Shown one piece after another: positions 7,179-9,429 of a DNA stretch of 64,000 bases (positions within the stretch are counted from its first letter, which is position 1; every line of letters begins with the position of its first letter). The notes under the pieces were generated by a model. That model was given only the letters and a program-made list of their open reading frames with translations. It made no database searches and was not told where the DNA came from. The stretch comes from Chitinophaga pinensis. Its GTDB lineage: Bacteria; Bacteroidota; Bacteroidia; NS11-12g; UBA955. The stretch covers positions 67,375-131,374 of the forward strand of contig CAMBXL010000004.1 in the NCBI GenBank assembly GCA_945871905.1, in the 5' to 3' direction. The translations under genes and the position numbers were made by a program.

Positions 7179-7517
7179 ATGGCAATGAGTAAAAAATCAC
7201 TTTTTGATTCAAATGAAGTAGAATTGAGCGTTCTATGCAAAGCATTAGGGCATCCAGCACGTATTAAAATAATTAAAATTCTATTGGCAAAAAATGATCA
7301 AACATGTAAAGATATTGTAGAAATGCTTCCTTTGAGTCAATCTACAGTTTCACAGCACTTGTCCGAACTTAGAAATGCTCAGTTGATTACAGGTAAAAAC
7401 CACAAAACAAGTGTCATTTATAGTGTAGATAAAAACTATCTAGCCAAATCTCAAAAGCTTTTAAGTGAGTTCTTCAACGCTCACATCCTAAATGTTAGAC
7501 AATCGACTTTATTTTAG
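7179..7517 (+). CDS. ArsR/SmtB-family winged-helix transcriptional regulator
   Basis: LCKALGHPARIKIIKIL...CKDIVEMLPLSQSTVSQHLSELRNAQLI is the ArsR HTH signature. Only a single Cys, so no canonical metal-binding Cys-x-Cys site. Confidence 0.7.
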   Translation: MAMSKKSLFDSNEVELSVLCKALGHPARIKIIKILLAKNDQTCKDIVEMLPLSQSTVSQHLSELRNAQLITGKNHKTSVIYSVDKNYLAKSQKLLSEFFNAHILNVRQSTLF

Positions 7518-7850
7518 TTGATTAAGTGAATCTTCTATCGATTCTAAGTCTTCTGTCAATTTCCCAACTCCCATTTTTATCTTATTTATTTCTGTTTTTA
7601 GCTTGTTTTTCAATTGCTGAATAACTAATTCCTTATTATCTCTTTTCATTTCACCAATACCCAATACAAGCCATTCTGGATTGATATCAGGGAATTGCTG
7701 TAGTATGGAAACCACTAAATCCATACTTGCTTTGTTACGACCTGAAGATAAATGCGACAACACAGCATTTGATATATTTAGCTTTTGACTAAACTCTAAT
7801 CTACTCAAACCTGATTGGTTAAACACTTCTAATATTCTGATTTCTAACAT
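7509..7850 (-). CDS. XRE-family helix-turn-helix transcriptional regulator with C-terminal coiled coil
   Basis: N-terminal LSRLEFSQKLNISNAVLSHLSSGRNKASMDLVVSILQQF is a Cro/cI-type HTH. The C-terminal half is a charged helical region. Convergent with the ArsR-like gene, with a 9-bp overlap. Confidence 0.7.
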   Translation of the reverse strand: MLEIRILEVFNQSGLSRLEFSQKLNISNAVLSHLSSGRNKASMDLVVSILQQFPDINPEWLVLGIGEMKRDNKELVIQQLKNKLKTEINKIKMGVGKLTEDLESIEDSLNQLK

Positions 7851-7870
7851 ATTGTATTTATTGATTAAGT

Positions 7871-7973
7871 TTTACAAATGTAATAAACAAAACTTTACAA
7901 CTGTAAAATATGATGTTTACAAATGTAAATAAATAGTTTTACATTTGTAAATAAATAGTTTTACAATTGTAAA
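7871..7973. promoter_or_regulatory. phased array of five 14-bp palindromic repeats (TTTACA-NN-TGTAAA), candidate operator/promoter cluster for the XRE regulator
   Basis: Copies at 7871, 7894, 7916, 7938 and 7960 (tttacaaatgtaat, tttacaactgtaaa, tttacaaatgtaaa, tttacatttgtaaa, tttacaattgtaaa). Spacing is 22-23 bp. Each arm embeds a TAnnTTTG-like -7 element. Copy 1 lies 21 bp upstream of the XRE ATG. Confidence 0.6.
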
Positions 7974-8209
7974 ACTATGCATAAATACTTAAATAACAAT
8001 TAGTTGGATTTACGTATTTAAAGCTTAAAATCTATTTAAGCTGGTAATTTTTCGTTTTTATATACTCTATTACTATCACATCTAGCTCAAATATATAATT
8101 CAAACACACCAACATTACCTAAACTAATAGTTTATTAAAAATCCATAATTACTTGAATTTTAATTTATTAAAATATTTGTTTAACTTTTATATATTAGGA
8201 TATAGGCAT

Positions 8210-8238
8210 AAAAAAAGGAAGTACTCCTTCCCTTTTTA
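8210..8238. terminator. bidirectional rho-independent terminator downstream of the MFS gene
   Basis: aaaaaaa-ggaag-tactc-cttcc-ctttttaa: a GC-containing hairpin flanked by an A-run and a T-run. On the minus strand it reads as hairpin plus T7. Confidence 0.5.
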
Positions 8239-8253
8239 ACTTAAACTGAATTA

Positions 8254-9429
8254 TTAAAGACTAGATTGGTTTCTTTGTTTCGACTGAAAGAAAGATATAA
8301 TAAACAATGGAGACAATGCCAGTGAGGCACAAATTAAAAACACAGTAATAAAATTACTTGTGTTATTTTGGTAAACAAGCCCACCTATTGAAGAGCCTAT
8401 GATTATTCCAAGCTCCATAAATACAAACAAAGTGCCTACCGCTTTCCCCTTTTGTCCAGGTAAAGAAAGATCTACTGCCCAAGCAAATATTGAAGGTGAC
8501 AATAAACCAAATGCAATACCAAAACAAACAGACGAGATTAAATAAGTGACAATCTCATTACTAAATGCCAATATAAACATACTTATAAATAGCACAATAC
8601 AGCCAATGACAACAATTTTCACCCTTCCATACCTATCACTCCATTCTCCGGCCATTAGCCTTATAAAAACTGAAGCTAAAATATACACTGCCATATACAA
8701 TCCCTTATTTTCAACGTGAATATACGCTGAAAAATCCGCAATCAATGCTAATATTGCACCTGATGAAAATGCAGTCAATAGAAATACCAATGAAGGTAAT
8801 AAAACCTTTTTTTCGATAAGTTCATTTTTATTGATTTTTAGCACACTTAACTTGAATTTAGCTTTATTAGGTATTGATTCCTTGAGGGTTGCAAAAAGAA
8901 TCATTGAAATTAACCCTAGAAACGATGAAAACAAAAACATCCAATCGAGGCCGAAATGTTTAGTAAATTCACTTCCAATAACCCATCCTAATGCGTTACC
9001 AATATTATTGCTTACTCCTATTATTCCCATCGCTTGACCTCTTTTAGCCAAAGGCACTATGTCGTCTGCATAAGCAGTAAAACCTGTTGGTGTAAAGCCA
9101 GCACTTAAACCATGAAAACCTCTAAGGATTAAAAATAAAGATAAAAAAGGAATGTAAATATACAATAAACCACTGAAAGCAGTAATAAATGCACCGAAAA
9201 TCATTACAAAAACCCGACCTACTGTATCGGAAATTTTACCACTAAATGGTCTGGATAATAAGGCAACAGTTGCAAAAGTTGGTATAATCAACCAAATATA
9301 TTCTCTGCCATTAAGTTGTTCTAACAGAAGAGGTAAATCGGGTAAAACCATCGAGAAGCTGCTAAAAAAGAATAAGCAAGCTAAACAAAGTATCCAAAAT
9401 GATTTTGGATATGCTTTAAAACCGTTCAA
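8254..9429 (-). CDS. major facilitator superfamily transporter
   Basis: 391 aa with about 12 predicted TM helices and an MFS-type loop motif (GKISDTVGR). Start is 3 bp after the lepA stop, which suggests co-transcription. Confidence 0.8.
   Translation of the reverse strand: MNGFKAYPKSFWILCLACLFFFSSFSMVLPDLPLLLEQLNGREYIWLIIPTFATVALLSRPFSGKISDTVGRVFVMIFGAFITAFSGLLYIYIPFLSLFLILRGFHGLSAGFTPTGFTAYADDIVPLAKRGQAMGIIGVSNNIGNALGWVIGSEFTKHFGLDWMFLFSSFLGLISMILFATLKESIPNKAKFKLSVLKINKNELIEKKVLLPSLVFLLTAFSSGAILALIADFSAYIHVENKGLYMAVYILASVFIRLMAGEWSDRYGRVKIVVIGCIVLFISMFILAFSNEIVTYLISSVCFGIAFGLLSPSIFAWAVDLSLPGQKGKAVGTLFVFMELGIIIGSSIGGLVYQNNTSNFITVFLICASLALSPLFIISFFQSKQRNQSSL

Follow-up and report, generated by a model that had tools for sequence, protein, structure and literature searches.

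A 22-bp-phased array of 14-bp palindromes as the probable multi-site operator of an XRE-family regulator gene in Bacteroidota

Known regulators of the Cro/CI fold, among them the repressors of phages 434 and P22 (c2), bind palindromes of 14–18 bp as dimers, and SinR of Bacillus subtilis, in oligomeric form, occupies several sites in a promoter. Within the Bacteroidota, knowledge of transcription factors and of the operators they bind is sparse. A non-canonical LexA described from the Bacteroidetes has an HTH of the phage-repressor type and regulates itself through palindromes (PMC8565304), and the -7 box recognised by the Bacteroidota sigmaA, TAnnTTTG, is located at -12 to -5 from the transcription start (PMC9723704). 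Outside the phylum, the sites bound by CopR of Lactococcus lactis, a winged-helix protein of the BlaI/MecI/CopY family, read GTTTACAnnTGTAAAC (PMC7253601). Here we describe a locus in which an array of palindromes with TTTACA/TGTAAA half-sites precedes a gene for a small XRE-family protein, and compare this locus with these systems.

The window, meaning the whole 64-kb stretch of DNA that was analysed, was searched with the pattern TTTACANNTGTAAA, which gave five matches at ≤1 mismatch, all of them in the array, against a chance expectation of 1.09 per window estimated from shuffles. A preliminary description of this DNA had placed five palindromes at 7871, 7894, 7916, 7938 and 7960, and all five were confirmed, copy 1 with one mismatch (Table 1). 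From each start to the next the distance is 23, 22, 22 and 22 bp, and TRF delimits a single array with a period of 22 bp and 4.8 copies. Direct reading of the sequence also bears out that copy 3 is the exact reverse complement of copy 4, and that the distance from the A of the ATG (7850) to the start of copy 1 is 21 bp. The earlier concern that the palindrome might be scattered at similar density, as an AT-rich, promoter-like word, is not borne out in the 64 kb: the word is unique to the array at ≤1 mismatch, and when two mismatches were allowed 23 matches were found versus 16.9 expected, the 18 outside the array being at about chance level. The spacers between copies 3 and 4 and between copies 4 and 5 are identical in the window. 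Duplication of a unit is another, mechanical, possible source of a 22-bp period, and counts against an operator reading.

Table 1 Features of the locus, in positions of the window
Feature	Position	Strand	Location and basis
ArsR-family gene, 112 aa, convergent with the XRE gene	7179–7517	+	9-bp overlap with the 3' end of the XRE gene
XRE/Cro-CI-type HTH gene, 113 aa, presumed binder of the array	7509–7850	-	ORF, Pfam, AF2, Foldseek
Whole array, five palindromic sites, 22-bp period	7868–7973		TRF and pattern search
Site 1 (proximal), TTTACAAATGTAAT, one mismatch (right arm TGTAAT)	7871–7884		-34 to -21 from the ATG, gene sense
Site 2, TTTACAACTGTAAA	7894–7907		-57 in gene sense; pattern search
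Site 3, TTTACAAATGTAAA, gene-sense reading TTTACATTTGTAAA	7916–7929		-79 in gene sense
Site 4, TTTACATTTGTAAA	7938–7951		-101 in gene sense
Site 5 (distal), TTTACAATTGTAAA	7960–7973		-123 in gene sense
GC hairpin with flanking A and T runs, terminator of the MFS gene	8217–8231		Just past the MFS stop; kept in close relatives

The protein encoded next to the array passes the Pfam HTH_3 (PF01381) threshold marginally, scoring 23.7 bits against a cutoff of 23.0 (E 5e-5, residues 9–61), with a weaker match to Phage_CI_repr in the same search; a precomputed PF01381 match is present on many of its homologs. No NCBIfam model matched above its cutoff, and the matches in PHROGs were to generic phage regulator families only. 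An AF2 model built on 26 homologs (mean pLDDT 89.9) has short helices at residues 3–13, 17–24, 29–36, 43–52 and 58–63, followed by one long helix at 73–112. Foldseek comparison with the PDB matched the N-domain to 434 Cro, P22 c2, C.AhdI, the N-domain of DdrO and ImmR, with 1.9–2.5 Å rmsd over 60–65 residues, and also, at about 2 Å, to the N-domain of SinR (3qq6, 1b0n); the E-values of 0.01–0.03 are weak because the domain is small. As modelled, the N-domain therefore has the five helices of a Cro/CI-type fold. Foldseek against the PDB gave no solved structure matching the whole chain, and a PDB sequence search with the family profile gave no match.

In the alignment of the 26 homologs, residues I26, S27, N28, V30, S32, H33, S36, G37, R38, N39 and K40 are invariant; the turn and the recognition helix consist of these residues. 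Conserved hydrophobic positions in the tail (77, 80, 84, 88, 91, 98, 102, 105, 109 and 112) follow a 3–4 heptad pattern with one break along a helix of about 40 residues. The initial characterisation as a 113-aa HTH protein with a coiled-coil tail thus holds on the combined evidence of Pfam, the predicted helix 73–112 and the heptad positions. The protein belongs to a wider family of more than 5,000 protein clusters (a profile search counted >5,400) that have an SH(I/L)xSGRNK helix in common, and one of the loci compared here (L032) encodes a homolog of 158 aa. Literature searches for XRE or Bacteroidetes operators returned no description of this family or of its operator.

Comparison across genomes indicates that the array accompanies the gene. 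A scan of one genome per species yielded 27 loci with homologs at 43–95% identity, all from uncultured Bacteroidota, and the palindrome was directly upstream of the gene in every one of them, with three to five sites each at ≤2 mismatches. A 22-bp register is kept in 26 of the 27, and the sites of these 26 loci fall into offset classes of -14/-15, -36/-37, -58/-59, -80/-81, -102/-103 and -123; at the locus of the most distant homolog (L027) the sites are degenerate and irregularly spaced, at 20–32 bp. With metagenome loci added, the comparison comprised 39 non-identical upstream regions spanning protein identities of about 40–99%. These have two to six sites per locus at ≤1 mismatch, four being the commonest count, and the interval between neighbouring sites is 22 bp in 112 of 119 cases, 23 bp in six and 21 bp in one.

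In the site profile the twelve arm positions are nearly invariant and the centre and spacers hold almost no information, a result that is partly circular because the sites were chosen by their match to the pattern. The 8-bp spacers have a mean pairwise identity of 0.329, compared with 0.335 expected from their per-position composition; their sequence is randomised and their length fixed, and the length of 8 bp therefore looks selected. The same picture is seen at close range among five relatives with 94–96% protein identity, in which the arms are invariant and the spacers and flank vary. Comparison of orthologous loci, suggested in the preliminary description, accordingly finds the array conserved upstream of the XRE gene across the 39 non-identical regions, and supports its interpretation as a conserved cis-element tied to the HTH gene. 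With its strict spacer length and random spacer sequence, the array would make a clear natural illustration of how selection acts on the phasing of operators.

The association was also seen from the DNA side. A scan for two perfect sites 22 bp apart, made on DNA only in a metagenome collection and in viral contigs, yielded 27 metagenome stretches and two in viral contigs, and 15 of these 29 are directly upstream of an XRE homolog. Among the remainder, a single type of large phage from gut or rumen is represented seven times. Two GC-rich stretches (L037 and L052), in which the word recurs several more times, may also be phage; five are two-copy duplications on contigs that look eukaryotic or unrelated; and on a Bacteroidota contig (L047) the site pair is upstream of a DUF6249 gene. 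Phased pairs on bacterial contigs thus almost always precede a member of the XRE gene family.

Placing these sites relative to the promoter requires attention to their centres, given that the -7 consensus needs a TT centre on the strand that is read. In the window the consensus occurs at 7927→7920 on the minus strand (copy 3), at 7882→7875 on the minus strand (copy 1) and at 7940–7947 on the plus strand (copy 4), that is in three of the ten arms and not, as had been stated, in every arm; site 2 has it on neither strand. Across the 39 loci (150 nt each), sense-strand TAnnTTTG upstream of the genes was found 60 times inside sites versus twice outside them, and all 39 have at least one sense -7 box (TAcaTTTG) inside a site. 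Copy 1 had been taken to double as the -7 box of the XRE gene, an assignment that the five close relatives do not favour: the centre of copy 1 varies among them (TT, AT, TT, TC, TC), and the sense TT centre of copy 3 is kept in all five. Most loci have in common a core pair of sites 22 bp apart, the first with an AA or AT centre and the second with a sense TT centre.

The favoured start of the XRE gene would therefore lie near 7915, served by the -7 box in copy 3, with a leader of about 65 nt containing sites 2 and 1; copy 4 would fall over the expected -33 region, copy 3 over the -7 box, and copy 5 upstream of both. A second start may lie near 7870, driven from copy 1 and with a 20-nt leader. 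For loci with the TT site at -14 or -15, the predicted start is at +1 or -1, which would give a leaderless mRNA. We infer all of these start positions from the positions of the consensus. The resulting promoter model places the -7 box within the operator.

The explanation that we consider best, with a probability of roughly 0.7, is that the array is the adjacent XRE protein's own multi-site operator, laid over its own promoter. Each 14-bp palindrome, with its TTTACA/TGTAAA half-sites, would take one HTH dimer, and the 22-bp spacing of about two helical turns would set neighbouring dimers on one face of the DNA. Within each dimer the two subunits would be joined through the C-terminal heptad helix, which may also connect one dimer to the next and so make occupancy cooperative. 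The -7 box is inside one site, the preceding site extends over -33 and further sites follow in the transcribed leader; we propose that occupancy of the whole array would therefore block RNA polymerase and that the gene would be negatively autoregulated. The invariant residues of the recognition helix match the near-invariant half-sites, and among the compared loci there was no case of helix and site changing together that could have provided evidence of covariation. From sequence and model we infer the XRE protein as the binder, as well as the dimer stoichiometry, the cooperativity, the switch behaviour and the sign of regulation. This reading connects a widespread but uncharacterised family to an operator of 14 bp, TTTACAnnTGTAAA, a pairing that is testable and that we regard as high-confidence; homologs in cultured Flavobacteriaceae carry the same word, so the prediction is directly testable and a regulon definable.

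An unlikely alternative is that a different trans-acting factor binds the array, either the ArsR-family neighbour or a repressor of the BlaI/MecI/CopY type, and that the XRE gene is merely its target. The convergent ArsR-family gene (Pfam HTH_5 at 6e-12; NCBIfam ArsR/SmtB) is a candidate source of the binder because it is conserved beside the XRE gene, which it adjoins in 27 of 28 loci, and the inverted repeats bound by ArsR/SmtB proteins likewise have a centre of 2 bp. Beyond it lie genes for a lipid A acyltransferase-family protein, an M42 peptidase and a DUF1801 protein, and this arrangement is kept in 27 of 28 loci, on contigs of 100–350 kb, with lepA also nearby in many. The absence of mobile genes in the vicinity, remarked on at the outset, is consistent with this conserved order among non-mobile genes. 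The upstream side varies; in the window it is occupied by an MFS gene (8254–9429) that, like the XRE gene, is on the minus strand and has its 3' end towards the array.

Against the ArsR-family protein as the binder, the sites persist beside homologs that have no ArsR neighbour. Two loci (L027 and L069) have a divergent gene for a TonB-dependent receptor instead and still have sites upstream of the homolog. A divergent M14 peptidase gene, again with the ArsR neighbour absent, is found in L032 and in four Flavobacteriaceae loci, L057–59 and L068, whose sources are Psychroserpens ponticola (CP116221.1), Seonamhaeicola sp. S2-3 (CP019389.1), Changchengzhania lutea (CP039456.1) and the assembly GCA_030430385.1. 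At these M14-adjoining loci, GTTTACAnnTGTAAAC-like sites are located at -42 and -6 of the homolog, and the Flavobacteriaceae loci have two or three further sites beside the M14 peptidase gene, a predicted regulon target in that family. The XRE-family protein is the only protein that adjoins the word in every gene context.

The case for a BlaI/MecI/CopY-type repressor comes from the word itself, which fits the cop-box criterion KACAnnTGTM and is identical to that of the L. lactis CopR operators (PMC7253601), the paper on CopR/CopY being the only one returned by a literature search for the exact palindrome words. A word that is also bound by CopR does not by itself identify the binder. However, tblastn searches with BlaI, MecI, CopY and a Bacteroides-like BlaI found no BlaI-like ORF in the window or in the fetched loci; the queries matched real Bacteroides proteins at ~75% identity. 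Two Bacteroides BlaI–BlaR1 operons that were examined have TTACGA-N5-TCGTAA upstream and no TACAnnTGTA. Moreover, if the array belonged to another factor, the XRE protein would be left without an operator of its own, as no other conserved motif is present upstream of its gene and the spacers are random.

It is about equally improbable that the XRE protein does bind the array and from there activates its gene, or both activates and represses it in the manner of the restriction-modification controller (C) proteins. Two of these, C.AhdI and C.Esp1396I, come among the nearest matches in fold to the XRE N-domain, and sites upstream of the one containing the -7 box could contact polymerase. According to two reports (PMC2632904, PMC2175313), C proteins work through neighbouring palindromes that precede the gene encoding them, activating at low dose and repressing at high dose. 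The position of the -7 box in one site and of the -33 region in its neighbour favours occlusion instead, many loci have further sites between the predicted start and the ATG, and neither Pfam annotation nor the conserved gene order reveals restriction-modification genes nearby.

Considerably less probable is a reading with no dedicated factor at all, in which the repeats would boost transcription by themselves, either as a stack of promoter elements or through an intrinsic bend of their AT-rich DNA. Three arms do match TAnnTTTG, a sigma70 scan reads the units as TTTACA-N18-TACAAT, and there are T3 and A3 runs at intervals of about 11 bp. Positions 1–2 and 12–14 of the palindrome, which are outside the -7 consensus, are nevertheless as invariant as those inside, and sites with the centres GA, GT, AC, CT and CC keep both arms, yet cannot be -7 boxes. 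Dyad symmetry is a requirement of a dimeric protein, not of a promoter.

We give a similarly small chance to the suggestion that the rest of the intergenic region (7975–8200) encodes a small RNA, which would start near 7952 from the plus-strand box of copy 4 and end at the hairpin downstream of the MFS gene. That box reads TAcaTTTG, the hairpin is terminator-like on the plus strand, the fold z-scores are modestly negative (-2.3 on the plus and -2.8 on the minus strand), and a block at 8116–8142 is conserved among the five close relatives. The z-scores, however, take in the MFS terminator and short palindromes, and a search of 7400–8400 against Rfam at a permissive threshold gave only a chance miRNA match. 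The centre of copy 4 flips among the relatives with 94–96% identity (AA, TT, TT, AA, AA), so the antisense promoter is not conserved. The gene on the MFS side also differs between lineages and the flank is conserved in the closest relatives only, and the proposal of a small RNA is thus left without support. The hairpin itself forms the outer limit of the regulatory region. A further palindrome in this interval, TAAACTAATAGTTTA (8120–8134), was considered as a second operator and set aside, as it is perfect only in the window and in no relative.

Phages and plasmids carry only remote relatives of the protein. Their collections gave HTH-domain matches of 30–38% identity and no close plasmid homolog, the nearest phage match being the BS-TP2 repressor, a 228-aa S24 protein with 29.8% identity; with only remote homologs there, and an S24 repressor as the best phage match, a phage or plasmid origin was rejected. 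The pattern scan of viral contigs found no XRE homolog. The large gut and rumen phages have five to six copies of the palindrome in one intergenic region and encode no homolog, and the phage contigs with the palindrome gave no match to cultured phages. The least probable reading of all would have a mobile element replicate or partition from the array, which would then resemble an iteron or a centromere. This reading can draw on a 22-bp period typical of plasmid iterons and a weak NCBIfam similarity of the XRE protein to TrbA (E 0.007, far below cutoff), but is opposed by the conserved gene order in 27 loci beside lipid A acyltransferase-family, M42 peptidase and often lepA genes, by the absence of rep, par, integrase and transfer genes, by the distance of the phage and plasmid matches, and by array units that are palindromes and not direct repeats.

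The reading of the array as the XRE protein's own operator can be taken further, to a speculative form that we think rather doubtful: the 22-bp-phased array might nucleate a filament of zipper-linked HTH dimers, forming an ultrasensitive or bistable chromosomal switch for a regulator found throughout the Bacteroidota, and large gut and rumen phages might use their own palindromes to read or titrate the host regulator.

Set against the described systems, an operator bound by the XRE protein would resemble those of the 434 and P22 c2 repressors, which likewise combine a five-helix HTH, 14-bp dyads and adjacent operators over their own promoter; dimer binding and cooperativity are presumed for the XRE locus. 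The preliminary comparison with a phage-cI-style switch fails on domain make-up, because the XRE protein has no S24 or other globular C-terminal domain and ends in one 40-residue heptad helix, and the locus differs further in having neither a divergent cro-like gene nor a prophage. SinR (111 aa) is close in size and similarly joins an XRE HTH to a C-terminal helical multimerisation domain, but the full-length fit is poor (1b0n_A, 99 columns, 10 Å rmsd): the XRE tail is a single long helix, and that of SinR a helical-hook tetramerisation domain. The SinR operator word also differs from that of the array, and neither a sinI-like antagonist nor a conserved small partner ORF was found beside the XRE gene in the compared loci. 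C proteins (C.AhdI, C.Esp1396I, C.BclI) are close in fold, at 1.8–2.0 Å over 53–60 residues, and their genes too are preceded by palindromic boxes lying side by side, to which the dimers bind cooperatively; unlike the XRE protein, they lack the long C-terminal helix, use two boxes and are encoded within or next to restriction-modification operons.

The Bacteroidetes LexA has an S24 peptidase domain, controls SOS genes and has different motifs, none of which applies here. CopR and CopY share the word and differ in the binder, a Penicillinase_R winged-helix protein that usually acts on two boxes before a copper-export operon, and the sharing of the operator word with the Firmicute cop box is presumably convergence. 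Judged from sequence comparison, the locus is most likely a well-supported Cro/CI-type multi-operator autoregulator, and as such an ordinary kind of gene switch. Two of its features are of some interest, the operator word in common with the cop box and the 22-bp phase, which appears to be strictly kept across deep divergence: CI-type operators comprise three sites at unequal spacing, and the XRE arrays comprise two to six sites on a strict 22-bp period.

A palindrome whose 2-bp centre reads TT on the sense strand, giving the -7 box TAcaTTTG, abuts the start codon of the regulator gene at -14 in L014, L016 and L044, and at -15 in L011, L020, L021, L023, L030 and L067 (L-numbers denote the other DNA loci retrieved for comparison). 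Given that the Bacteroidota sigmaA -7 box TAnnTTTG lies at -12 to -5 from the transcription start, this placement puts the predicted start at +1 or -1, which in turn predicts that the regulator mRNA is leaderless in these loci. The Flavobacteriaceae homologs have their ATG start codon within an operator-like site, GTTTACAATGATAAAC; L032 has a similar site whose end lies 2-3 bp upstream of the ATG.

The window spacers between copies 3 and 4 and between copies 4 and 5 of the array are identical (TAAATAGT), whereas the corresponding spacers of close relatives differ, a pattern that points to recent duplication or conversion of a single 22-bp unit. Arrays hold 2-6 copies and evidently gain or lose whole units. 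In some loci an additional site lies off the 22-bp register, 55-72 bp upstream of the array, and may have an auxiliary or looping role. A block of ~27 bp in the window is kept in five close relatives, within an otherwise variable spacer; it contains a perfect palindrome, TAAACTAATAGTTTA, that is imperfect in those close relatives.

The convergent pairing of the XRE gene with an ArsR-family gene is kept in 27 of 28 loci, and the 9-bp overlap of their 3' ends seen in the window also occurs in many of the loci L001-L026 and L030. This arrangement could permit transcriptional interference or merely reflect compact gene order.

Further operator-like sites adjoin a divergently transcribed M14 peptidase gene in the Flavobacteriaceae loci and in L032, where they form a 22-bp-phased array, and this gene is therefore a likely regulon member. 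In L047, a 3.4-kb contig containing no XRE homolog, a perfect TT/AA site pair, 22 bp apart, precedes a gene for a DUF6249 membrane protein; this gene could also belong to the regulon.

The palindrome TTTACAAATGTAAA was observed in 5-6 copies within one intergenic region, between small ORFs, in a single type of large gut/rumen phage contig (114-160 kb). Nearly all copies share the same polarity, and they are irregularly spaced, at intervals of 17, 20-22 and ~70 bp. No XRE homolog was found near these copies or in the viral contigs searched, and the contigs did not match cultured phages. These repeats may serve as operators for a factor of the same specificity, belonging to either the host or the phage.

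Coordinates of sites and associated features in the window and comparison loci
Feature	Locus	Position
Array spacer, copies 3-4	window	7930-7937
Array spacer, copies 4-5	window	7952-7959
Conserved block	window	8116-8142
Palindrome in block	window	8120-8134
XRE/ArsR overlap	window	7509-7517
Out-of-register site	L007	2826-2839
Out-of-register site	L019	2827-2840
Out-of-register site	L010	2843-2856
Site containing ATG	L057, L058, L059	3995-4008
Site containing ATG	L068	2495-2508
Operator-like sites, before ATG and beside M14 peptidase gene	L032	1492-1505, 1761-1796
TT/AA site pair	L047	333-368
Phage cluster	L028	27-150
Phage cluster	L029	3361-3503
Phage cluster	L034	1096-1219
Phage cluster	L036	286-460
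Phage cluster	L039	2425-2567
Phage cluster	L046	4062-4204
Phage cluster	L051	2093-2216
TTACGA-N5-TCGTAA dyads	L060/L061, L062/L063	~30-60 nt upstream of BlaI genes

Dyads of the form TTACGA-N5-TCGTAA precede Bacteroides BlaI-BlaR1 (Peptidase_M56/TonB_C) operons, with a second, similar dyad in L062 and L063. These candidate BlaI operators differ from the Firmicute TACAnnTGTA box.
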